Positions 12,147-24,616 of a stretch of 64,000 nt of DNA are shown one piece after another. Made by a program: the position numbers and the translations under genes. The number at the start of each line of letters is the position of its first letter. Within the stretch, counting starts at the first letter, position 1. The stretch spans positions 66,866-130,865 of the forward strand of contig CAZFRE010000001.1 of the NCBI GenBank assembly GCA_964521195.1. Direction: 5' to 3'. Source of the DNA: an uncultured Eubacteriales bacterium. Its GTDB lineage: Bacteria; Actinomycetota; Coriobacteriia; Anaerosomatales; JAAXUF01. Under the pieces are notes generated by a model. It saw only the letters and a list, made by a program, of their open reading frames with translations. It made no database searches and was not told the origin of the DNA.

Positions 12147-13349
12147 ATGGCGAATACTCGCGAGCACACCGCCCCGCGTCCTCGTACGGTCTACTTCGAC
12201 CACGCGGCGACGTCATGGCCCAAGCCACCCGAGGTCGTCTCGGCGGTTGAGCGGTCGCTGACCGAGCACGGGGGCAACCCGGGCCGTGGAGCGTACAGCA
12301 TGGCGGTCGACACCGCGCGGGCGATCCACGCCGCCCGCCGCGAGGTGGCGGCGCTGCTCGGCGTGGCAGACGCCAAGAACCTGCTGTTCCAGCCGGGCTG
12401 CACGCAGGCGATGAACCTCATGCTGTTCGGGCTGATCAAGCCGGGCGATCGCGTCGTCGCGTGTCCAACGGAGCACAACGCTGTCGCGAGGCCACTGAAC
12501 GTGCTCGCATCGCGAGGCGTCGAGGTCGTGCTCGCGGCCGCTGACGATGCTGGCTTCGTTGACGTGGACAGTGTCGAGGCGCTCGTCGCCGAGGCGCCTA
12601 CTCGCGCCGTGGTGTGCCAGCATGCCGGCAACGTCACCGGGACGATCCAGCCCGTCGCCGATCTCGCCGACATCGCGCACGAGCGTGGTGCGCTCATGCT
12701 GGTCGATGGGGCACAGGCCGGCGGCCACCTGCCCATCGACCTGTCGACCCTCGGTGCCGATGCGTGGGCCTGCTCGGGTCACAAGGGCCTGCTCGGCCCG
12801 CAGGGCATCGGCGTGTTGTATCTCGCGCCGGAGTGCGAGCCCGACGAGTTCGTGTTCGGCGGGAGCGGGCAGGGCGAGAGCGAGCATCCGATAGGCCCTC
12901 GATCGCGACCCGACCGCTACGAGGCCGGCACGCCCAACACGCCGGGTATCGTCGGGCTGGGAGCGGCGGCGCGGTGGCTCGCCGAGCACGGCGATGAACA
13001 GCGTGCACACGAGGCCGCGCTGACTCGGAGGCTCGTAGCCGGTGTGCGCGCACTGCCCGGCTACCGCGTGCTCGGCCCCGATCGCGACGAGCCGCGCGTA
13101 CCGGTCGTCTCGGTGGTGCACGAGCGCGCGCAAGCCGATCAGCTCGCGTTCACGCTGGACCGGAGATATGGAATTGCTGTGCGTTCCGGCCTGCACTGTG
13201 CGCCGTGGGCACATACTTCGCTCGGGACGATCGAGTCCGGAGCCTTGCGAATGAGCATCGGATTCGGGTTGAGTGAGGCCGACGTTGACCTCGCGATCGA
13301 GGCGCTCGGCGTTCTCGGCAAGGAGTACGGTGGCTCTGAGCAGGCGTGA
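12147..13349 (+). CDS. Class-V aminotransferase / cysteine desulfurase family protein
   Basis: PLP-lysine context CSGHKGL and a C-terminal active-site-like RSGLHCAP. Located at the end of the Moco biosynthesis gene string. Confidence 0.75.
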   Translation: MANTREHTAPRPRTVYFDHAATSWPKPPEVVSAVERSLTEHGGNPGRGAYSMAVDTARAIHAARREVAALLGVADAKNLLFQPGCTQAMNLMLFGLIKPGDRVVACPTEHNAVARPLNVLASRGVEVVLAAADDAGFVDVDSVEALVAEAPTRAVVCQHAGNVTGTIQPVADLADIAHERGALMLVDGAQAGGHLPIDLSTLGADAWACSGHKGLLGPQGIGVLYLAPECEPDEFVFGGSGQGESEHPIGPRSRPDRYEAGTPNTPGIVGLGAAARWLAEHGDEQRAHEAALTRRLVAGVRALPGYRVLGPDRDEPRVPVVSVVHERAQADQLAFTLDRRYGIAVRSGLHCAPWAHTSLGTIESGALRMSIGFGLSEADVDLAIEALGVLGKEYGGSEQA

Positions 13350-13475: not shown

Positions 13476-14477
13476 TTGTTGAAGCGGGTAACGCTGCTCG
13501 ATGCAGCCATCGGAGTTGTGATCGTCGCTATCCTTCTCGTCGGTGGGTACTTCGCCTACTCGGTCTATGCGAACAACCAGGCGTTGCGCACCGGATCCCC
13601 GGCCAACCGCGAGATCGAGGCGCTCAAGCAGAAGCTCAAGCTCAAGCCCAACGACGTGGAGACCCGCATGCGCCTGGCGCAGGCGCTTTCCGTCGCCGGC
13701 CGTGGAGACGACGCGATCGAGCAGTACCAGCAGGTACTCAAGCTCAACGACGAGTGGGTGCCAGCGCTGTCGGGCGTCGGCTTCGAGCTGATGAAGCAGA
13801 AGGACTGGAAGGGCGGCGAGGAGTACTTCAAGCGAGTCATCAAGCTCACTGAAGGCAAGACGCCCGACATGGCCAGCGGCAGCTCCGCCGAGATCGCGAA
13901 CTACTATGTGGGTATCGCGAGGATGGAGCAGCGCGACTACTCGGGCGCGGCCGGCTACCTGAAGCAGGCTCTGCGCATGCGCCGCGATGCGTCGGACACC
14001 GCATACGCGCTCTCGGTCTGCTACGGCAAGCTCGACATCACCGACGGCCAGCGCGAGATGCTGGCGTACACACTCCAGTTCGATCCCAAGATGCCTGAGG
14101 CGAACTACGACTACGGCAAGATACTGCTGGCCTCCGGCGACGTCGCTGGCGCCGCCGAGCACTTCAGGACTTCGTCCACATCCGCACCGTATAAGCAGGA
14201 GCCCAAGGACGAGCTCGCGAAGCTCGGCTCGGCCACGGAGCGGTTCGCCGAGGCGAAGAAGCTCGCGTCGACCGATGCGAGCTCGGCACTCGTGGAGGCG
14301 AGAGTGGCCGCTGCGCTCGACCCCGAATCCGTGGAGTCGCTGCTACTCGTGGGCACACTCTACGAGAAGGTCAAGAAGAAGGACGACGCGAAGACCACGT
14401 ACGAGAAGGTATTGGTCATCGATCCCGGCAACGCCACCGCAACCGCCGGACTGAAACGGGTGAAGAATGGCTCCTGA
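13476..14477 (+). CDS. Membrane-anchored TPR repeat protein
   Basis: TTG start 9 nt after AAGGGAG. One N-terminal TM helix, then several TPR-like 34-aa repeats. Overlaps the downstream gene by 11 nt. Confidence 0.7.
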   Translation: MLKRVTLLDAAIGVVIVAILLVGGYFAYSVYANNQALRTGSPANREIEALKQKLKLKPNDVETRMRLAQALSVAGRGDDAIEQYQQVLKLNDEWVPALSGVGFELMKQKDWKGGEEYFKRVIKLTEGKTPDMASGSSAEIANYYVGIARMEQRDYSGAAGYLKQALRMRRDASDTAYALSVCYGKLDITDGQREMLAYTLQFDPKMPEANYDYGKILLASGDVAGAAEHFRTSSTSAPYKQEPKDELAKLGSATERFAEAKKLASTDASSALVEARVAAALDPESVESLLLVGTLYEKVKKKDDAKTTYEKVLVIDPGNATATAGLKRVKNGS

Positions 14478-16086
14478 CGAAAGCCCGGAGGTCACGGAAG
14501 TAGCGAGCGATGAGGACTCCGTCCTCCCGACGGAGTCGCTTGCGAACGCCATCGCCCGTGACGGGCTGCGCCCGGAGGACCCGCGGAAGCTGACGAGCCG
14601 CGAGCGCCGCCGCCGCCTCATCCTTCTGGCGATTCTGGCGCTGCTGCTCCTGCTGCTCAGCTACCTCGCCTACTACTACACGATGAACCGCAGAATGCCG
14701 AGCCTGGGGCTCGCGCCTGCGGGCAGCGACTACATCGAGCCCCCGCGCTACCTCTACTCGATCTCCGCTGACGGCGCCCAGTCCCTCGTCCGGCCGGTCG
14801 GTGTCGGCGTCGCCGATGACGGCCGGGTCTACGTCGTCGACTTCGGGCACCGGCGGGTGAGCGTCTTCAGCAATCCCGGCCGCTACCTGTTCTCCTTCGA
14901 TACGACCGCCGACGGCAAACTCGTCAATGCGGTGCACCTGGTCATCAACGATGGCGAGGTGTGGGTTTCCGAGCGCTCGAACCGCACGATCTACGTCTTC
15001 GATCTCGAGGGCAACTACCTGCGCAAGTTCGTCCCGAAGAACGAACCTGATCTGAAGTGGACCCCCCTCGCGTTCTCGTTCGACGCGAGCGGGGCACTGC
15101 GCGTCACCGACGTGGGGGACACGAACAACCACAGGCTGCACTACTTCTCCGTGGATGGGAGTCGGACTGCCACCATCGGGAAGACCGCGCAGGTCAACTC
15201 GCTGCAGGAGCAGCCGGGCACGTTCCTGTTCCCGAACGGCGTCGCGGTGGACGCCAAGGGCGAGGTCTACGTCTCCGACGGCGACAACCGACGCGTCCAG
15301 GTCTTCGATCCCAACGGGGCGTTCCTGCGCTTCATCGACACGAGCGGCGTGCCCCGGGGTATCGCCATCGATCAGAAGAGTCGACTCTATGTGGCCGATG
15401 CTCTCGCGCACACGGTCTCCGTGTTCGACCTGAAGGGCAAGATGCTCACCCAGTTCGGCGAGCGTGGGTTTGGCCCGGGCCAGTTCAACTACCCCAACGA
15501 CATCGCCATCGACAGGCGGGGTCGCATCTACATCACCGACCGCGAGAACGGCCAGGTACAGGTGTGGGGCTGGTCGGTCGCGCAGATTCCGCCGGTCCCG
15601 GTTCCGAAGACACCGTTGGCATGGCTTGCCGCCCTGGCGTGCTGCCTGCCGCTCATCCTGCTGCCGCTATTGCTCCTTGCCCGCCGCAAGGTCCGCGTCG
15701 TCGTGACGCCGGAGTTCATGGATGCCTTGGAACTGGTCGGCGAAATCCGGCCGACCGCCGAGAAGGCGCGCGTGCGGCTTATCGCACCGGAAGAGGATCT
15801 GGCGCACTACGAGGGCCGGGTCGTAGACTCCATCGTGCTGACCGACCTGCTCACGTTCGAGGAGTACTCGGAATCGGACGCGCGTGCGCTCATGGAGAAG
15901 TACAAGATCACGCAGCGTCCGGCGATGCTGCTTTCGATGGCATGGCGCGCTAAGGCACTGGCCACGGACGACAACGACCTGCGACTCCTGGCTCTGCTGG
16001 CGGAGATCAGAACGGTCGACGTCAAGGAGTTCCGTGAGATCTATCTCAAACGCGACGTTGTCGCTGAAGAGGTGGATGGAGAGTAG
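14467..16086 (+). CDS. Two-TM NHL-repeat beta-propeller protein with ~135-aa cytoplasmic C-terminal domain
   Basis: A TM helix at about residues 52-72, then NHL-type repeats (for example GVAVDAKGEVYVSDGDNRRVQVFD and DIAIDRRGRIYITDRENGQVQVW). A second TM follows (LAALACCLPLILLPLLLLA), then a charged C-terminal domain. Confidence 0.7.
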   Translation: MAPDESPEVTEVASDEDSVLPTESLANAIARDGLRPEDPRKLTSRERRRRLILLAILALLLLLLSYLAYYYTMNRRMPSLGLAPAGSDYIEPPRYLYSISADGAQSLVRPVGVGVADDGRVYVVDFGHRRVSVFSNPGRYLFSFDTTADGKLVNAVHLVINDGEVWVSERSNRTIYVFDLEGNYLRKFVPKNEPDLKWTPLAFSFDASGALRVTDVGDTNNHRLHYFSVDGSRTATIGKTAQVNSLQEQPGTFLFPNGVAVDAKGEVYVSDGDNRRVQVFDPNGAFLRFIDTSGVPRGIAIDQKSRLYVADALAHTVSVFDLKGKMLTQFGERGFGPGQFNYPNDIAIDRRGRIYITDRENGQVQVWGWSVAQIPPVPVPKTPLAWLAALACCLPLILLPLLLLARRKVRVVVTPEFMDALELVGEIRPTAEKARVRLIAPEEDLAHYEGRVVDSIVLTDLLTFEEYSESDARALMEKYKITQRPAMLLSMAWRAKALATDDNDLRLLALLAEIRTVDVKEFREIYLKRDVVAEEVDGE

Positions 16087-16115
16087 TTGACCCGGCCCTT
16101 TTAGGGGTCTATTGT
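16087..16115 (+). promoter_or_regulatory. Candidate sigma-70-type promoter for the formate dehydrogenase/cytochrome operon
   Basis: TTGACC (16087-16092), 17-nt spacer, TATTGT (16110-16115). It sits about 80 nt upstream of riboswitch copy C. Confidence 0.4.
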
Positions 16116-16197
16116 GGGGCTACGCGGAGTTTGTGACGATTGTTGCAAGCCAGCGAGCGGTCCGGCAGTCGCTTGCGAACCGCCTTGAAAGCGCGAC

Positions 16198-16306
16198 ACA
16201 GACGATCTCCGAGCCTTCCAGCCTAAGGCGTCCCCAAGACGCTATGGCTTCAAGGCCGATGGGTGCCAGTGGAAACGCTGACGCCTCCCGACTTGGAAAG
16301 GAGACC
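16198..16306 (+). promoter_or_regulatory. Moco/Tuco riboswitch-like element, copy C (terminator-coupled)
   Basis: Blocks CUCCGAGCC, GCCUA, a GAAA hairpin (16067+200: 16267-16280), GCCUCCC (16282-16288) and GGAAAGGAG (16295-16303). The GAAA-hairpin stem covaries among the three copies (ATCGAGG/CCTCGAT, GCGG/CCGC, CAGTG/CGCTG). Confidence 0.7.
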
Positions 16307-16394
16307 GCACACACCGGGAGGCCCCAGGATGGGGACCTCTTAGCTGTGCGGCGCTTTCCTCGGGGTAAGGAAGATCGGCATGAGTACGAAAACG

Positions 16395-16449
16395 AACCGG
16401 TATGCAGCGGGGCAGTCCCCCGACTTTGCGTACCGGTTTTTCGTTTTGT
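16395..16449 (+). terminator. Intrinsic terminator-like hairpin plus U-tract in the operon leader
   Basis: AACCGGTA ... TACCGGTT stem with an inner CGGGG/CCCCG stem, followed by TTTTCGTTTTGT. A T-run like this is rare in so GC-rich a sequence. Confidence 0.55.
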
Positions 16450-16543
16450 GTGCTCCCAATCGCCTCCCCGAACAGATGAGAGGAGGCGATCGCGCGGGAT
16501 AGGCAATCCTCACACAAGGTAGGGAGCTAGTTCTTATCCGTAC

Positions 16544-16570
16544 TACCTCCGAGAGAAAGGAATGGAGGTA
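16544..16570 (+). promoter_or_regulatory. SD/start-codon sequestering hairpin
   Basis: TACCTCC (16544-16550) is complementary to GGAGGTA (16564-16570). The latter holds the SD and the first base of the ATG at 16570. Confidence 0.4.
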
Positions 16571-19500
16571 TGGCTACTAAAGACACAGGGCAGTCGTTCG
16601 GCGGGATGACACGACGCGCGTTCGTCAAGACGGCCGCTGTCGCGAGTGCGGCAGCGAGCTGTGGACTCAACGTCGCGTTCAACGCCGAGAAGGCGCTCGC
16701 GTACGAGAACGACACCACGAATTACAAGGTCACGAACACCACCTGCCCGTACTGCTCGGCGAGTTGTGGCCAGCGCGTTGTTGTCGCCCTCACGGGAGCC
16801 AACACCGGCAAGGTCGTCGACGTCTATGGGGACTTCGAATCGCCGATGAACTCGGGCGGCCTGTGCTCGAAGGGCGCCGGCTCGCTTCAGTTGGTCAACA
16901 ACCCGCGGCGCATCGGCGCGTATCCTGGCGCTCACCCGGTCAACGATGTCTTCGCTGCCGACACGACGACGTACCCCGATGGCGTCGCGTATCGCCGCGA
17001 AGAAGGGGTCACGGCAGGATGGGTGCCGGTCACGCTGAACGCGGCGATGGCCGAGATCGCCTCGACGCTTGTCGCCAAGCGTAACCTCGATCCCGCGACC
17101 AACAACAGCAAGGATGTCGCGTTCTTCGGCTCCTCGCACATGAACAACGAGTCGAACTACATGTACCGCAAGATCATCGCGAACTTCGGTACCAGCAACG
17201 TCGAGCATCAGGCTCGTATATGACACTCGTCCACCGTGGCCGGTCTGGCCGCAGCATTCGGACGAGGCGCGATGACGAACCACTGGTCCGACATCGCCAA
17301 CTCCACGAACATCGTGGTGTGGGGTGCCAACCCCGTCGAGAACCACCCCGCTTGTGTGGCGCATATGAATCGCGCGCGCTTCCCCAAGCAGTTCTTCAAG
17401 TTCCTCGCTGACGGCGTCACGCCGGATCCGCGGGCGAACAAGACCCCTGCGAAGCTCATCGTCGTCGACCCGCGCAAGACGCGTACCGCGCTGCAGGTCG
17501 ATGAGTCGCGCGGCGACCGCTACATCCGGATTCGCCCCGGCACCGACATCGCGCTCGGCAACGGCCTCATGCGCTACATGATCAACAAGATCGAAGCGCT
17601 TCCGGGCACGGACCCGACGCGCGTTGCCTTCTTCGCGTACCTCAACCAGAGCGGCAACGGCTCGTTCTTCAACGACGGAGCTGCTTCCGGCACTGCAGTT
17701 CTTGACGAGTCGGTCGTGCTCACCGGGACGGCCGCGACCGCGCTCGCAAACGCGGGCATCTATACCACGCCCGCGATCGTGGTGACGAGCTCCGACGGAC
17801 TCACGACCTACGCCGCAACCGACTACACGCTGGATGCCGCCAACGGTACGCTCGCGCGCACCGCGACCTCGGCGATCCCCTCAGGCGCCACGGTCCTGGT
17901 CGACTACACGTACGGTGCGTGCGCGCTCATGACGAACGTCGCAGGCAGCTCCAAGTACACGGACGCCAGGTTCCTCCTGACCGCAGACGGTACGGACTAC
18001 GACCGCGAGACCAAGAACCCGGGCACGTCGCGCCAGATCACGGCCTTCCCGAAGAAGGCTGCATCCGTCACGGCCGACCCGAACACTGTGTACAACCGCT
18101 TCAAGAAGCACCTCGAGCCGTACACGCTCGCGGTCACAGCCGACATCTGCGGATGCACGACTGCCGACATCGAGTTCCTCGGCAACGCGTTCATCGCGAA
18201 CAGCCGCTGCGCCACGTCACCGGTGACGATCACCGATCGTTCCGTGACGATGACCGGTACCGTGGCACAGACGCTTGGCCACACCGGCCTCACCGGCGTG
18301 GTGGTCACCAGCTCCGACGGGCTCACCACCTACACGCTGACGACGGATTACACCATCGATGCCACCCAGGGCACGATCACTCGTGTCGCCACGGGCAGCA
18401 TCACCGCCGGTCAGACGGTACTCGTGGACTTCACGGGCACGCCGAGCGACCCGCGTGATCCCGCGTACCGCGCGACCACGATGCTGTATGCCATGGGCCT
18501 CACACAGCACACCTGCGGTGGTCAGAACGTCAAGACGTTCGCCGAGATCCAGACGCTCATGGGCAACATGGGTCGGGCCGGTGGCGGCATCAACGCCCTC
18601 CGCGGCATCCACAATGTCCAGGGTTCGACCGACATGGGCCTGCTGTACGGCAACATCCCGGCGTACTCAGGCAACCCAGGCACCCAGGTCAACGGTGGCC
18701 CGAACTGGAACACCACGCCTAGCTCGAACAACGCGTTCGGCATGTACATGGATGCTCTGTGGGGCACGCCGCTCTCGGGCACGGGCAACAAGCTCCAGAT
18801 GAACAACTCGTACGACGACGCGTACAACACGGCAGCGATGGGACTGCAGCAGCGCGGCTTCTACAACATGACGCTGAAGTGGTTCGGCGACTACACGACG
18901 ATCAACGGTATGGCGCTCGGAGCTGCGAAGCGTGCGGCCGTCGACGCGTGCTACTCGTTGTGGCCCAAGGGCAACGGCGACGACCACATCACGATGTTCC
19001 GCAAGATGGGAACGGGCGCCACGAAGGCCGCAGTCGTGTGGGGTCAGAACCCCGCCGTCACCGAGCCGAACCAGGGCGCGGTGCGTGCAGGACTGTACAA
19101 CCTCGACCTGCTTGTATGTGTCGACATGTTCGAGAACGAGACGGCAGCAGTTCCCCGCAAGAACGGCGGCGTCACGTTCCTGATCCCGACCGCCTCGCAT
19201 GTGGAGAAGGCCGGATCGGCGACGAACTCCGGCCGCACGCTTCAGTGGCGCTACAAGGCCGCTGAGCCTTCCGGCAACACCAAGGACGACAACGAGCTGC
19301 TGCTCCGGTTCGCCAGTGCGCTCGACACCGCTGGTGCGTTCTCGCACATCAAGTCCGTGTGGGACACGAACGGCATCACGTATGACACCTCGGTCTACAA
19401 GCAGCTGTACGGCAATCCGTACGGCGGCTACCTGCCGGGAACCAACACCTTCGCCGGTGTCTCCGGTGCTGCCGAGATGGTCACGCTGCGCAAGGTCATC

Positions 19501-20838
19501 AGCGACCCGCTGACGTACCAGGCGACCCCCGTGGTCGACGAGTCGATCACGCTCACCGGCACGACGGCGACCTCTCTCGCCCACGCGAACCTGATGGCGA
19601 CCGTGGTCGTGAAGAGCTCCGATGGCCTGACGACGTACACGCAGGGGACCCACTACACGGTGGACTACCCCGGCGGCAAGATCACCCGCACGTCGACATC
19701 CACGATTCCGAGCGGCGCATCGGTGCTCGTCACCTATGCGTACAACGGTACCGTCACCGGTTCCGAGTGGGTTGCCGAGGCGGTGTACCGCGAGATGTGT
19801 CTCCCGAGCGCCAATGGAGGCACCCTCTGGATCTACACCGGCGCGTACAACAACCTCTCGACGAGCCCGACGGACAACAAGGCCGCTTGGCAGCCGGCAT
19901 GGGTCTGCCTCAACCGCGCGAAGAACCGCGATCGCACGGACGACGGCAACACCCTCGCGTACCACGGCTGGGGCTACGCGTGGCTCGTCAACCGGCGCGT
20001 GCTCTACAACAACTCCGAAGTCGTTGGCGACGTCGCCGACTTCTTCATGGGCCCGGACTCGGCTTCGAGACTGTTCGTCTCCACGAGCACCGCGGTTCTC
20101 AACTACTCGCGCTGGTACCGCACGATCCACCGTCTCTCGGACCTGCCCAGCCCGGTTCTCGCAGGCGACACGACCAGCCCGCACTACGCTGGGACTGCGT
20201 ACTCGCTCGCGGGCCGCTTCTCGGCTCACACCGAGCCGTACGAGACGCCGCGGCAGAACCTGCTGGCAAAATGGGGCCGCAACACCCGGTACACCGCAAC
20301 GGCGCCTGCGTCGAACCTGCCGTGGAACCTGGTCAAGGACGACACCCGCGTTGCTGGCCGAGGCTACGTCAACGGCGTTGGCGGCAAGACCGTCACCGAC
20401 CCGTCGGCCGCAAGCTTCCCGCTGGTGCTGACCTCCATCCGGTGCGTCGAGCACTTCCAGGGTGGCCCGATCACCCGTAACAACTGGTGGAACGTCGAGC
20501 TCGAGCCCGAGCCGTGGATCGAGATCAACTCCTCCGACGCCGGCAAGTACGGCATCAAGGACGGCGACTACGTCAAGGTCATCACCGCCCGTATCGTCAA
20601 CGATGCAGGCGCAACGGTGATGCCCGCCAGCTATGGCTCAGGCTTCCGCGCCCGCGTGGGTACGGGCCTCACCTCGAGCCAGAAGGTGGCCCCGGGTGTG
20701 GTCGCGATCCCGTGGCACTGGGGTGACAAGGGTCTGTCGACCGGCTCGCGCGCGAACGACATCTGTATCGATGCGTTCGACTCGAACACGGCGATACCCG
20801 AGTACAAGGCCTGTCTCTGCAAGATCGAGAAGATGTAG
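16570..20838 (+). CDS. fdnG: Tat-exported selenocysteine-containing molybdo/tungstopterin formate dehydrogenase catalytic subunit (FdnG-like), enlarged by three repeat insertions
   Basis: Track ORFs 16570-17223 and 17236-20838 are in the same frame, separated only by the TGA at 17221. The junction reads EHQARI-U-HSSTVAGLAAAFGRGAMTNHW, compared with E. coli FdnG QARV-U-HGPTVASLAPTFGRGAMTNHW. Also present: Tat motif TRRAFVK, N-terminal CxxCxxxC...C FeS motif, and INALRGIHNVQGSTDMG. Confidence 0.85.
17221..17266 (+). promoter_or_regulatory. UGA selenocysteine codon plus SECIS-like hairpin
   Basis: CTCGTCC (17226-17232) pairs with GGACGAG (17260-17266). An inner GGCC/GGCC stem carries an apical GGUCU loop, as I recall for the E. 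coli fdhF SECIS (GGUC loop). Confidence 0.65.
17698..17916 (+). repeat. Intragenic ~72-aa repeat module 1 within the FdnG-like gene
   Basis: VLDESVVLTGTAATALANAG...VVTSSDGLTTYAATDYTLDAANGTLARTATSAIPSGATVLVDYTYG. Confidence 0.8.
18223..18438 (+). repeat. Intragenic ~72-aa repeat module 2 within the FdnG-like gene
   Basis: VTITDRSVTMTGTVAQTLGHTG...VVTSSDGLTTYTLTTDYTIDATQGTITRVATGSITAGQTVLVDFTG. Confidence 0.8.
19531..19749 (+). repeat. Intragenic ~72-aa repeat module 3 within the FdnG-like gene
   Basis: VVDESITLTGTTATSLAHAN...VVKSSDGLTTYTQGTHYTVDYPGGKITRTSTSTIPSGASVLVTYAYNG. Confidence 0.8.
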
Positions 20839-20851
20839 GGAGGTGTGAACA

Positions 20852-21790
20852 ATGACTGTTATGGCGATTCTCCAGGATGCCGACAAGTGCATGCGCTGCA
20901 ACGGGTGCGTTATTGCCTGCAAGCGCGAGTGGAACCTCGCTTCGCCGACTAGCATCTCAGACGTCATCCCGCAGAGGTCCATCGTGAACCCGCGCCAGCG
21001 GCTCGCGATCAAGAGCCTCAAGCGTGGCGACATGGGCCCGTTCGTCCGCTTCAGCTGCTGGCACTGCCCGGATCCCCCCTGCGCCTATGAGTGCCCGTAC
21101 GGGGCGATCAAGAAGGAGCCGACGGGTGCGATCAACGTCGATGCGTCGAAGTGCCAGCCCAACCTGTGCAACACCGGCCCGGGGCCCAAGCCCTGCGAGG
21201 TCGGCTGCCAGCGCGGTGGCTACCCGAAGGTAGGCCAGGTCTACGCTTCCGGTCCCTATGCCGGCGAGCAGAAGATGAACAAGTGCACGCTGTGCACGGG
21301 CCGTGCCGGCGCCGATGGCGTGGTCGATGCGAGCACCGCTCTTCCGACGCGCGCTCGCAAGAACTCGTCGGGCGACTTCGTCAGCGATCTGCCGCTTCCT
21401 AGCGGTGGAGTGCTCCCGAATCCGACGGTCCCCGAACTCGCACACGAGCCGGCATGCGTCTCTTCGTGCCCGGCCAAGGCGATGAAGTGGGACTCGAAGG
21501 CTAATATCCTCGCGTACTTGAACGATCCCGCGAACGGGTTCAAGCTCTCCAACGGTACGCAGAACTGGATCGGCAACGGCGCGATCTACTGGGCAAGCAA
21601 GAAGGTCTTGCTCACCCCGCCCAAGGCCGACCCGTTCATCGAGGATCATGTCGCACCGATGGCGAGCAGCATGCTCTCCTCGGGCCGCATGGTTGTTCCG
21701 ACGCTCGTGCTCGGCGGACTCGCCGCCCTCGGTGCCCGCAAGGCTCGGGTGGCTGCCGAAGAAGCCGACGCTGTGAAAGAGGAGGTGTAG
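20852..21790 (+). CDS. fdnH: Four-cluster 4Fe-4S electron-transfer subunit (FdnH/DmsB-like) with C-terminal TM anchor
   Basis: Cys motifs CMRCNGCVIAC, CWHCPDPPCAYEC, CQPNLC...CEVGC and CTLC...CVSSCP. A C-terminal hydrophobic helix (VVPTLVLGGLAALGA) is followed by charged residues. Confidence 0.8.
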   Translation: MTVMAILQDADKCMRCNGCVIACKREWNLASPTSISDVIPQRSIVNPRQRLAIKSLKRGDMGPFVRFSCWHCPDPPCAYECPYGAIKKEPTGAINVDASKCQPNLCNTGPGPKPCEVGCQRGGYPKVGQVYASGPYAGEQKMNKCTLCTGRAGADGVVDASTALPTRARKNSSGDFVSDLPLPSGGVLPNPTVPELAHEPACVSSCPAKAMKWDSKANILAYLNDPANGFKLSNGTQNWIGNGAIYWASKKVLLTPPKADPFIEDHVAPMASSMLSSGRMVVPTLVLGGLAALGARKARVAAEEADAVKEEV

Positions 21791-21793
21791 GAC

Positions 21794-23062
21794 ATGACGA
21801 CCAAGAGACTTGCACTCGCACTCGTCCTCGCCGCCGTGGTGTTGATGGTTCCGTCGGTCGCATTCGGCAACTTCGCGATTCACGGCAACTACGTGCAGGA
21901 CACTGACGCGTGCGCCGGTTGTCACCGTGCCCACACGTCGGTTTCCACGATCACCTGGACCGATTCGGCCGCAGGTGACCAGCACTCCGCTCTGCTCGTG
22001 ACGTCAGCCACTGAGATGTGGCAGTTCTGCTACGCGTGCCACGACGCCACGAACCAGGGCTCGGACACCAACGTCCAGCAGGGCATCTACACCGGTACGC
22101 TGTACGGCAGCACGGACGCCACGCTCAACGGTGGTGGCTTCGAAGAGGTCGACGGTGCACCGGTCACGTCCACCCACATGTACAAGGGCTCCAGCTGGGG
22201 CGCGTACGGCGGTGGCTACTTCGGTGACGGCAAGACCTTCGCCGCTGACTACAGCGACGCCGGTCAGGGCCCCGATGCATTCATGAACGGTACGGGCAAC
22301 GCCATCAAGATGGACTGCGCGACCTGCCATGACCCGCACGGTTCGCCCAACTACCGCATCCTGAAGACCGTCGTGAACGGCAACATCGTCGGCGAGTACA
22401 CGCCCACCGGCGACCCGACCGATCCCGACCCGAACGGCTTCGTGTCCTCCGTCGAGACCGGATGGCCGACCAACGGCTTCCGTCTGCACACCGCGTATCC
22501 GGGATACCAGCCGGACTACACGACGGCCCGTTACGCCAAGGGCTATGACATGCAGACCTCGGCGATCAACACCACCAAGGGCATGAGCGGTTGGTGCGCT
22601 GGCTGCCACAGCACGTACCTCGGCCCGGTCGAGACGTTCACCCGCACCAATGGTGTCGGCGTCGAGACCACCTATGCCAGCGTCGCGAGCACGTACAACG
22701 CCGGCGACGGCGGCGGCCTGGCCCTGCGTCACAAGCACCCGATCAACGTCGAGCTCGATACCTACAACGGTCCCGACAAGTCGTCGATGATCGTGACGGA
22801 CACGACGCTGCCGCTTGCGCATAACCTTGCTGAAGCGGGCTCGCACACCAACCAGTCTTCGGACTGGATCGAGTGCCTGACCTGCCACCGCGCCCACGGT
22901 ACCGCGGCTGACATGACCGGCTACGCGTCCAACGCTGGCGCAGCATCGGTCGTGGACACCGACGGTATCGCTCGCAACGAGTTCGTCGCGCAAAACCCGG
23001 TGCCCTCTGCACTCCTGCGCTACGACAATCGTGGCGTGTGCGAGAGGTGTCACAACAAGTAA
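21794..23062 (+). CDS. Hexaheme c-type cytochrome, OmcS-like
   Basis: Signal peptide/anchor, then six CxxCH motifs at 21911, 22028, 22316, 22595, 22874 and 23039. The motif contexts (CAGCHRAH, CATCHDPHG, MSGWCAGCH, CLTCHRAHG, C-terminal CERCHNK) and the size match my recollection of Geobacter OmcS (CEGCHTMH, CSSCHDPHG, MSEWCANCH, CLSCHRAHA, CNKCHAKD). Confidence 0.6.
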   Translation: MTTKRLALALVLAAVVLMVPSVAFGNFAIHGNYVQDTDACAGCHRAHTSVSTITWTDSAAGDQHSALLVTSATEMWQFCYACHDATNQGSDTNVQQGIYTGTLYGSTDATLNGGGFEEVDGAPVTSTHMYKGSSWGAYGGGYFGDGKTFAADYSDAGQGPDAFMNGTGNAIKMDCATCHDPHGSPNYRILKTVVNGNIVGEYTPTGDPTDPDPNGFVSSVETGWPTNGFRLHTAYPGYQPDYTTARYAKGYDMQTSAINTTKGMSGWCAGCHSTYLGPVETFTRTNGVGVETTYASVASTYNAGDGGGLALRHKHPINVELDTYNGPDKSSMIVTDTTLPLAHNLAEAGSHTNQSSDWIECLTCHRAHGTAADMTGYASNAGAASVVDTDGIARNEFVAQNPVPSALLRYDNRGVCERCHNK

Positions 23063-23101
23063 GGAGCTGAGCGTGCGTGCCGGCGCGCTTCTGCTACGGT
23101 G

Positions 23102-23131
23102 GAAGGGCCGGGGAGGAATCCCCGGCCCTTT
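23102..23131 (+). terminator. GC-rich hairpin after the cytochrome gene
   Basis: GAAGGGCCGGGG / CCCCGGCCCTTT stem with a 6-nt loop, 40 nt after the stop codon. No clear U-tract. Confidence 0.4.
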
Positions 23132-23140
23132 CCCTATCGA

Positions 23141-24616
23141 ATGAGCCCTCCCGAGGTCGGTTTGGAGCGCCCGTTGGCCGAGCGTCCACGAAAGGTGCTG
23201 CCCGCCGCACTCGCCGCCCTTGTCGGCGCGGCCGGCAGCTTCGTGCTGTCCACCATCGCGATGGACACGATGGCCGACACGGCTCTCGTCGGGCTATCCG
23301 CCTGCGTGGCGTTTCTGTTCGTGCTGGCGATCCAAGGTGCGTCCGGTCTCCGCGCCCTGCGTGCTGCCGAGAGGGGCTCCCTCGCGCTGGCGGCATCCGG
23401 TGGGGCGCTTGCCCTGTGGGCGGCGCCGTTGCTCACGCTCTCGCAGCGGGCATCTGACTCACCGTCCGGCGCCGACGTCCTGTTCATGACCACGTCGGCA
23501 TGGGGGCTCGCCGTCGTGGCTGCATCGTTCGGGGTTCGGAGCCAGCGGCCGCCGGTGACAGCACTCGCCGGGGCGGTGGCCTGCGTCGCGGGTGCCGCTG
23601 GCCTGCTCGTCAGCTGGGAGAGCCCAAGCTCCTTCGCGCCGTTCGCGAAGTTCCCGGTCCGCGAGGCGCTCATGCTTGCGGCGGGCGTGCTGTTCGCCGC
23701 AGGCGTGTTGGCGCTTGCGACCGCCGCGCGCAAGGCGGGAACCCGTGTGGCCGCGCTTGCAGGGCTTGGCTCGGCGGCCGCACTCGGGCTCGTCTCGGCG
23801 CTTCCCAGCCTCCCGGCTGCCGATGAGATCGGGCGGGGGGCGCTCTTCCCGTGCCTGTATCTGGGCGTCATGGGTACCATATTCGCCTTGGGATGGATCC
23901 ACGCCTCGAACGAGGTCGGCGTGTCGCGCGCATCGGTGCCGCTGTTCGGCGTACCGATCGCCGTGATGTCGCTGTCCGCACTCGAGCGGGTCACGACCGT
24001 CTATGGGCCCGACCCCGTCAACTGGCCCGCGGCTCTGTCGGGGGCCGCCGTGATCATCGCGGGATGTGCGGTGGTCTGGCTCGCTGTACCCGTTGAGCGA
24101 GCGGAGTCGACCCAAGGGCGCCGTCTCTCCCTTGCGTTGGGCATCGCCGTGGCAGGCTTCGCGGCCGCTGCAGCGTCACTGCTCACGCCGGCGCTTAGCG
24201 CCGTGTCTGAAGGTGGCACCGGAGTGCCGTTTCGGGCGGAATGGACGATGGTCGGAGCGGAATCGGCGTCCGGCTGGCTGGTCCTTGCTGCGGCTGGCCT
24301 GACGCTTGCATCTGTGTGGATGGCTCGGCGTGGCGGAACGCCGGTCACATGGGTCCCGGCCGCGGTCGCTGCGGTCGTGGCTTGCGTGGCGGTCATCCCG
24401 TTGCGTGACCTCACGTTGCACACGTGGAACCGGTGGGTCCCTGCCGACGTCCAACAGACGTACGGGACGGAGTACTCTCGTCTGGTGACAGGATTCGTAG
24501 TCGACCCGACTCGGCTGGTCGCAGTGGTGCTCTCGCTGGTCGCGCTCGTGCTAGTGGCGGCGACGGTACGCCGAGCAGGTTCGGCTGGACAGCTACTCGA
24601 GGAGGACGCGCGATGA
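23141..24616 (+). CDS. Polytopic membrane protein, unknown function (Ala/Leu-rich, at least 10 predicted TM segments)
   Basis: ATG at 23141 chosen because it lies downstream of the hairpin (track start 23099). Hydrophobic segments run throughout. No motif recognised. Confidence 0.5.
   Translation: MSPPEVGLERPLAERPRKVLPAALAALVGAAGSFVLSTIAMDTMADTALVGLSACVAFLFVLAIQGASGLRALRAAERGSLALAASGGALALWAAPLLTLSQRASDSPSGADVLFMTTSAWGLAVVAASFGVRSQRPPVTALAGAVACVAGAAGLLVSWESPSSFAPFAKFPVREALMLAAGVLFAAGVLALATAARKAGTRVAALAGLGSAAALGLVSALPSLPAADEIGRGALFPCLYLGVMGTIFALGWIHASNEVGVSRASVPLFGVPIAVMSLSALERVTTVYGPDPVNWPAALSGAAVIIAGCAVVWLAVPVERAESTQGRRLSLALGIAVAGFAAAAASLLTPALSAVSEGGTGVPFRAEWTMVGAESASGWLVLAAAGLTLASVWMARRGGTPVTWVPAAVAAVVACVAVIPLRDLTLHTWNRWVPADVQQTYGTEYSRLVTGFVVDPTRLVAVVLSLVALVLVAATVRRAGSAGQLLEEDAR

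Follow-up and report, generated by a model that had tools for sequence, protein, structure and literature searches.

The 64,000-nucleotide stretch of DNA analyzed here (positions 66,866 to 130,865 of contig CAZFRE010000001.1, assembly GCA_964521195.1; hereafter, the window) derives from an uncultured bacterium of the Coriobacteriia and encodes a formate dehydrogenase (FDH) whose catalytic alpha subunit is interrupted at three separate points by homologous modules of approximately 72 amino acid residues. Based on profile searches and structure prediction, the modules are assigned to a promiscuous phage "decoration" β-sandwich family (NF052337/PHROG 807/PF27730), not to a new fold. The subunit is a known enzyme with a new domain architecture, built from a known phage domain, and the functional significance of this architecture is unproven. 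The features of the alpha subunit are as follows.

16570..20838, + strand: FDH alpha subunit of the FdnG/FdhA type, with molybdenum or tungsten bis(pyranopterin guanine dinucleotide) (Mo/W-bisPGD); 1422 aa when read through the selenocysteine (Sec) codon (Pfam, TIGR01553, phmmer, Foldseek)
16570..16689 (end approximate), + strand: N-terminal twin-arginine translocation (Tat) signal region, MTRRAFVKTAAVASAAAS... (TIGR01409 TAT_signal_seq, residues 14-33)
17221..17223, + strand: in-frame TGA, read as Sec (U218) and followed by His219 (HQARI-U-HSSTV alignment)
17698..17916, + strand: module 1, site A, aa 377-449, phage-type decoration β-sandwich (hidden Markov model (HMM), alignment, NF052337 E 5.5e-9)
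18223..18438, + strand: module 2, site B, aa 552-623 (alignment, PHROG 807 E 1e-7)
19531..19749, + strand: module 3, site C, aa 988-1060 (alignment, PHROG matches, indel against relatives)

Identification of the FDH alpha subunit

The alpha gene is composed of two open reading frames (ORFs; 16570..17223 and 17236..20838) in the same frame with a TGA between them, at which automatic gene calls break the subunit in two. The residues around this TGA, HQARI-U-HSSTV, were aligned to U192-H193 of Desulfovibrio vulgaris FdhA (HQARICHSPTV in the U192C chain and "X" at the Sec position in others). In the same comparison, the active-site Arg of the GGGINALRG motif aligns with R441, and the Fe4S4 cysteines (CPYCSASCG...LCSKG) match the cluster cysteines of D. 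vulgaris FdhA. A Pfam scan of the subunit identified Molybdop_Fe4S4 (PF04879, E 3.9e-14), Molybdopterin (PF00384), and Molydop_binding (PF01568), and the top NCBIfam match was TIGR01553 (formate-DH-alpha), with 313.6 + 83.6 bits in two insert-interrupted pieces around the Sec codon; this score falls below the 814-bit equivalog cut-off, which the inserts and the splitting of the query probably explain. Furthermore, phmmer related the subunit to D. vulgaris FdhA (E 1e-88) and Escherichia coli FdnG (E 2e-71), and Foldseek matched its AlphaFold2 model to the FDH structures 9QM1, 6SDR, 1H0H, and 1KQF with E-values from 1e-32 to 1e-36. At the N-terminus, TIGR01409 TAT_signal_seq scored 19.4 bits against a cut-off of 16.7, and the Pfam TAT_signal match was weak. 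Judged from its sequence, 16570..20838 encodes a Tat-exported Sec-containing alpha subunit of the FdnG/FdhA type in which the Sec, His, and Arg residues and the Fe4S4 cysteines are intact. A study of Anaerosomatales describes the substrate of the related clade enzymes as uncertain (PMC9686372).

A hairpin with the stem CUCGUCC/GGACGAG lies 3 nt 3' of the Sec TGA (window 17221-17290). Its folding stability was no better than that of shuffled sequence (z = 0.14), and it cannot be assigned as a selenocysteine insertion sequence (SECIS) element from folding alone.

Three homologous modules interrupt the subunit

The alpha subunit comprises 1422 residues, compared with 977-1015 for solved relatives (1013-1015 for the E. 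coli FdnG and D. vulgaris FdhA chains); reading through the Sec TGA thereby confirms the length of about 1422 codons, against about 1015 for FdnG, given in a first-pass annotation of the window. That annotation also attributed much of the excess to the modules. This holds for 218 of the approximately 407 residues in excess of FdnG (~54%), and for nearly all of the 226-residue excess over the nearest relative, P0003; the whole FDH clade is already approximately 180 residues longer than FdnG.

The three modules lie in frame with the alpha subunit at exactly the coordinates of the first-pass annotation, whose consensus for them is also essentially right. Self-BLASTP of the whole subunit returned the self-match alone, and the modules were therefore compared pairwise; modules 1 and 2 share 50% identity (E 7e-15) and modules 2 and 3 share 52% (E 2e-19), and in a MAFFT alignment modules 2 and 3 are 53-57% identical to module 1. 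That they interrupt otherwise colinear FDH sequence is borne out by two comparisons. Solved FDH sequences align on either side of each module. In addition, P0003, the sister of the window protein in the neighbor-joining core tree (79% identity over 963 aligned residues), has none of the three modules, the indels being clean, and serves as a natural deletion control. Module 3, for example, is a clean 73-aa indel against P0003 between ...TYQATP and TVTGSEWVAE, and the indel is also clean against P0002, P0005, P0007, and P0020.

An assembly or annotation artifact, in which collapsed or duplicated reads would have produced false repeats, is of negligible probability. Nothing was found in its favor beyond the occupation of site C in the window sequence only. 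Assembly duplication was excluded because the module DNA is only 55-65% identical between copies, with 22-26 synonymous-different codons per pair and all copies in frame, and because neither a GC anomaly nor a flanking repeat is present; orthologous modules also occur in homologs from JGI, NCBI, ENA, and Logan records. A search for traces of mobile DNA was likewise negative: apart from the similarity within the modules themselves, no direct or inverted repeats flank them, and neither a GC shift nor a compositional break occurs at the modules.

Across 24 FDH-borne copies of the module, the Arg of the G-x-I-x-R motif is invariant, and G, I, and V are nearly so. The three window modules further share an identical 11-residue block, VVTSSDGLTTY (VVVTSSDGLTTY minus its first residue), encoded at 17779-17811, 18301-18333, and 19606-19638 by a 33-nt repeat whose copies share 82-88% identity; every difference between copies 1 and 2 is synonymous. 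The block varies in the orthologous site-A modules of other homologs, and its identity within the window protein could reflect old intragenic gene conversion or a constraint common to the three copies.

The modules belong to a phage tail decoration domain family

NCBIfam NF052337 (tail_tube_6XGR) matched the alpha subunit with 99.1 bits (cut-off 60) in three stretches, each confined to the interior of the profile (positions ~69-169 of 245). PHROGs 807 ("major tail protein with Ig-like domain"), 20240, and 18315 also matched the modules with E-values of 1e-7 to 7e-9 each, and PF27730 ("UCP028589") appears in the precomputed Pfam annotation of P0001, a database protein identical to the window alpha subunit. 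A local Pfam scan of the three modules gave no Big or FN3 family, with only a sub-threshold SWM_repeat match (17.5 bits against 27) and noise. When PDB sequences were searched with the three-module profile, no solved FDH was found, and neither a lectin repeat (E 0.002) nor a wedge protein (E 1.6) was convincing. The earlier judgment that such inserts are unfamiliar in characterized enzymes thus stands for the solved FDHs, but the module itself is a catalogued phage virion domain.

A word-index homolog search with the alignment of 24 modules yielded one 88-aa match, the index being insensitive for so short a domain. An exhaustive HMMER search, in which the three-module profile was run against 1.84 billion cluster representatives, retrieved 1072 proteins at E<=1e-3. 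Among the best 150 of these 1072, to which the following carrier counts refer, masking of the module left approximately 50 unrelated carrier groups, the largest being a group of ~270-aa proteins (37 members) and the tail-sheath proteins (21). Named carriers include tail sheath (PHROG 23, 21 proteins; Phage_sheath_1, 16), full-length tail tube (11, E<=1e-25), baseplate wedge, tail fiber, and Baseplate_J proteins, and FDHs account for five. The module is internal to its carrier in 255 of 297 copies (86%). Among the matches listed, the closest non-FDH copies, 51-56% identical to the window modules, are those of the phage tail protein P0125 and the tail sheath P0126; P0125 is the nearest non-FDH relative of module 2 (56% identity).

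The possibility that the alpha subunit as a whole is a tail tube protein was considered and ruled out. The profile matches are confined to the inner part, the sequences flanking the modules are colinear FDH, and the tail-tube β-sandwich core is absent.

Two further proteins found with the module profile deserve mention. P0121 (1275 aa) contains about 8-9 diverged module copies and has no Pfam match. P0122 (1313 aa) contains 17 exact 75-aa tandem repeats that match both the module profile and CBM_X2, a carbohydrate-binding immunoglobulin-like (Ig-like) domain, which hints at a possible link of the module family with glycan-binding repeats.

A model of module 1 built from the 24 FDH-borne copies contains five strands, with a predicted local distance difference test (pLDDT) score of 95.3; within the full-length alpha model, the pLDDT of module 1 is 74-93. 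The best Foldseek match in the PDB is 8rk3_f, a chain of 252 residues from the baseplate/tail map of phage JBD30 (query-based TM-score (TMq) 0.74, root-mean-square deviation 2.6), followed by the tail-tube proteins of phages YSD1 and Chi (TMq 0.63 each). In the BFVD set of predicted viral structures, the best match has a TMq of 0.86 with 36% identity (E 4e-5), and baseplate, major-tail, and fiber proteins come next. In JBD30 gp44, the Ig-like "decoration domain (residues 88-175)" is inserted into the tube β-sandwich (PMC11445458), and "domain 2" of YSD1_22 is a DE-variant Ig-like sandwich placed between two strands that locks neighboring subunits (PMC7385642). The window modules are accordingly modeled as small, independently folding Ig-like β-sandwiches, the fold anticipated in the first-pass annotation.

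Distribution and insertion sites within the FDH clade

The clade was sampled as the 120 best homologs and 72 species-level genome loci, all of which come from Coriobacteriia-like or Actinomycetota metagenome-assembled genomes. Modules were found in seven of the 72 loci, one or two in each, and most homologs have none; the domain is annotated, yet sporadic, and is not a routine component of FdnG-family proteins. Among the proteins examined, three copies in one chain occur only in the window alpha subunit. Insertions occupy at least eight loops (core columns 121, 227-229, 235, 323, 388, 418-420, and 586, and another in P0173/P0181). Site A is common to ten homologs (P0002, P0004, P0005, P0006, P0009, P0010, P0011, P0025, P0027, and P0042), and P0040, P0053, and P0055 also carry a module at site B. 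Of the proteins examined, the window protein alone has one at the exact position of site C.

The relationships of the copies were assessed with neighbor-joining trees of the core and of the modules, built on short or diverged alignments. In the weakly resolved module tree, module 3 nests among the site-A modules, which suggests that it is an intragenic copy, and module 2 groups with P0119 and phage copies. Module identity is lower than core identity: 65% against 75% for P0002, the closest module-bearing homolog, and 39% against 67% for a distant homolog. The modules remain intact despite diverging faster than the core. Because they occupy at least eight loop sites, are patchily distributed, and are absent in the closest relative, the modules are, on this sequence comparison, an evolutionary add-on that should be dispensable for catalysis.

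The same observations bear on a neutral explanation, in which an insertion-tolerant domain entered by illegitimate recombination or intragenic duplication and was kept as a harmless passenger. This explanation is possible, if doubtful. It would fit the patchy distribution and the lack of all three copies in P0003, the inconsistency of the insertion sites across the clade, the faster evolution of the modules, and the fact that the same loops take unrelated inserts in other homologs. However, the site-A copies are intact and in frame with their fold-defining residues conserved, down to 63-75% core identity; the 11-residue block is identical in the three window copies despite synonymous differences and varies among orthologous copies; and drift alone would hardly account for the build-up of three copies in a single protein.

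Larger inserts of up to ~330 aa, unrelated to the modules, were observed in the same hot-spot loops of other clade members (L017:5989-10116, L050:5989-9780, L030:5989-9813, L046:5989-9321, and protein P0110). A Pfam scan of these large inserts gave no match. The inserts of L017 and L050 contain two to three Asp-box-like S-x-D-G-x-T-W motifs, a pattern that suggests a BNR-type propeller. In this clade, the alpha subunit seems to accept extra surface domains quite generally.

Gene neighborhood

The alpha gene lies in a cluster (13476-24616) in the order tetratricopeptide repeat (TPR) protein, NHL propeller, Sec-containing FDH alpha subunit, beta subunit, hexaheme cytochrome, and a 505-aa polytopic protein for which no Pfam match was found. 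Its neighbors are as follows.

13476-14477, + strand: TPR protein (Pfam TPR)
14467-16086, + strand: NHL-repeat β-propeller protein with hydrophobic stretches at ~50-70 and ~385-405 by eye (Pfam NHL)
20852..21790, + strand: iron-sulfur beta subunit with a C-terminal hydrophobic stretch, VVPTLVLGGLAALG, by eye (Pfam Fer4_11, Fer4_7; NCBIfam HybA, HmcB, DmsB, FDH-beta-like)
21794..23062, + strand: hexaheme c-type cytochrome with six CxxCH motifs and an N-terminal signal/anchor by eye (Paired_CXXCH_1, Cytochrome_C7, MtrC/MtrF)

The order TPR-NHL-alpha-beta-cytochrome recurs in the related loci L001/L002, and the cluster looks like a formate-to-cytochrome electron-export module. A hexaheme cytochrome is encoded downstream of alpha-beta in 67 of 71 related loci, namely all 10 that bear modules and 57 of the 61 without them. 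The first-pass annotation had listed cytochrome-binding surfaces among the possible roles of the modules and had raised a correlation of the inserts with OmcS-like neighbors as a check. The survey of the 71 loci gives no such tracking, because the cytochrome is nearly universal with or without modules. A role in docking the hexaheme OmcS-like neighbor for electron transfer is disfavored and highly improbable on these counts, even though the cytochrome gene lies directly downstream of alpha and beta. Moreover, in FdnGHI and FdhAB the electrons leave the alpha subunit through an iron-sulfur cluster to the beta subunit, not through surface loops.

An alternative based on protein-protein contacts, in which the modules act as a lock, is unlikely. 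The modules would make lateral contacts within FDH oligomers or arrays, or dock to the NHL propeller, the TPR protein, or the 505-aa membrane protein. Such a lock has a precedent in the inserted domain of the YSD1 tail tube, which wraps round neighboring subunits, and the TPR-NHL-alpha-beta-cytochrome synteny is conserved. However, the synteny is found with or without modules, so that no partner co-varies with them, and the variable insertion sites speak against one fixed interface.

A class-V aminotransferase resembling cysteine desulfurases and selenocysteine lyases (Aminotran_5, E 5e-87) is encoded at 12147-13349, just upstream of the TPR-NHL-FDH cluster; a tie to Sec or iron-sulfur supply is speculative.

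Possible function of the modules

By analogy with phage decoration domains, the modules may act as weak multivalent surface tethers to envelope polymers or to neighboring surface proteins, a proposal for which the chances are about even. Of the roles listed in the first-pass annotation, docking and cell-wall interaction would likewise be plausible. The ends of the module are probably close together because most copies are internal to their carriers, and the domain could then be accommodated in a loop, leaving the host fold intact, and protrude. The insertion sites fall at indel hot spots that also take unrelated inserts in other clade members, a pattern typical of exposed loops that points to surface exposure of the modules. 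An extracytoplasmic location of the enzyme is supported by the Tat signal and, by eye, by the C-terminal hydrophobic stretch of the beta subunit and the N-terminal signal of the cytochrome. Coriobacteriia are presumed to be monoderm, and under this assumption the exported enzyme would operate on the outer side of the membrane, within the cell-wall zone, beside the apparently membrane-anchored beta subunit and the hexaheme cytochrome. There, the tethers would hold the exported catalytic subunit in place within the envelope, and three copies would raise the avidity.

Several points weigh against this proposal. The tethering role is proposed entirely by comparison with the decoration domains of phages, the function of which is itself only partly established. 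The exposure of the modules and their placement with respect to the beta interface and the substrate funnel were deduced from the indel hot spots, not measured. Modules 2 and 3 are only moderately confident in the full-length model (pLDDT ~55-70), and the small size of the domain keeps the Foldseek E-values against the PDB weak (>=0.019). Finally, most clade members and the nearest relative lack the module, which is equally compatible with a neutral passenger.

In its widest form, the tethering proposal would imply that subsurface Coriobacteriia-like Actinomycetota domesticated a phage decoration domain as a reusable tether, inserted repeatedly, with as many as three copies per chain, into at least eight loops on the exposed face of an extracytoplasmic FDH wired to multiheme cytochromes. 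The tether might anchor the enzyme within the cell-wall layer or a surface array, the whole belonging to a Gram-positive extracellular electron-transfer conduit, and its recurrence could reflect selection or active shuffling of domains between prophage tail genes and envelope enzymes. This wider scenario is tentative and less likely than not.

Comparison with known systems

Mo- and W-dependent FDHs have been studied intensively as CO2-reduction catalysts, with catalytic subunits that are seen as compact and conserved four-domain proteins. The architecture found here is surprising for a specialist in molybdoenzymes. D. vulgaris FdhAB (6SDR), the D. gigas enzyme (1H0H), and E. coli FdnGHI (1KQF) share with the window enzyme the Tat signal, the Fe4S4 domain, the Sec-His pair, the NALRG Arg, the molybdopterin and dinucleotide-binding domains, and a four-cluster beta partner. 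In contrast, the window alpha subunit is approximately 400 residues longer and carries three phage-type β-sandwich modules, which no solved FDH sequence contains. The partner of the window enzyme is a hexaheme c-type cytochrome, whereas that of E. coli FdnGHI is the b-type subunit FdnI. A full-text literature search combining molybdopterin oxidoreductase and formate dehydrogenase with Ig-like and insertion retrieved no paper.

The tail-tube decoration domains of JBD30 gp44 (8RK3), YSD1_22 (6XGR), and phage Chi (domain 2, 8VHX) are significant profile matches, in addition to the structural similarity described above. Both the window modules and these siphophage domains are lodged within a loop of the domain that hosts them. 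The window modules are carried by a cellular redox enzyme and the siphophage domains by virion proteins, and, unlike the phage proteins, the window alpha subunit lacks the tail-tube β-sandwich and carries three copies per chain. Other Ig-like domains of phage virions, such as the C-terminal domain of lambda gpV, T5 pb6, and those of the Big_2/FN3 type, are small exposed β-sandwiches thought to provide weak adhesion to cell-surface polymers. The window modules differ from these in being of another sequence family and internal, not terminal. The lambda and T5 Ig-like domains are cited in PMC11445458.

The FDH fold appears to tolerate whole extra domains at many loops, with a phage-derived module used repeatedly, and the case is a clear one of a virion surface domain moved into cellular metabolism. 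For enzyme engineering, the clade provides a natural map of permissive insertion sites together with a ready plug-in scaffold. The finding also opens an aspect of the envelope organization of exported respiratory enzymes in presumably monoderm, cytochrome-rich subsurface bacteria. If the modules prove adhesive, they would constitute a new kind of enzyme-retention device.

Clusters of molybdopterin oxidoreductases with multiheme cytochromes in Anaerosomatales (OPB41), such as MCL4079376-90 of Parvivirga hydrogeniphila, are of the same kind and belong to the same broad lineage as the window cluster. A term search of the study describing them gave no mention of inserted modules; in the same source, these oxidoreductase-cytochrome clusters are proposed to underlie Fe(III) reduction (PMC9686372). 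In the vicinity of L001/L002, more multiheme cytochromes and a Ni_hydr_CYTB-type cytochrome b were observed.

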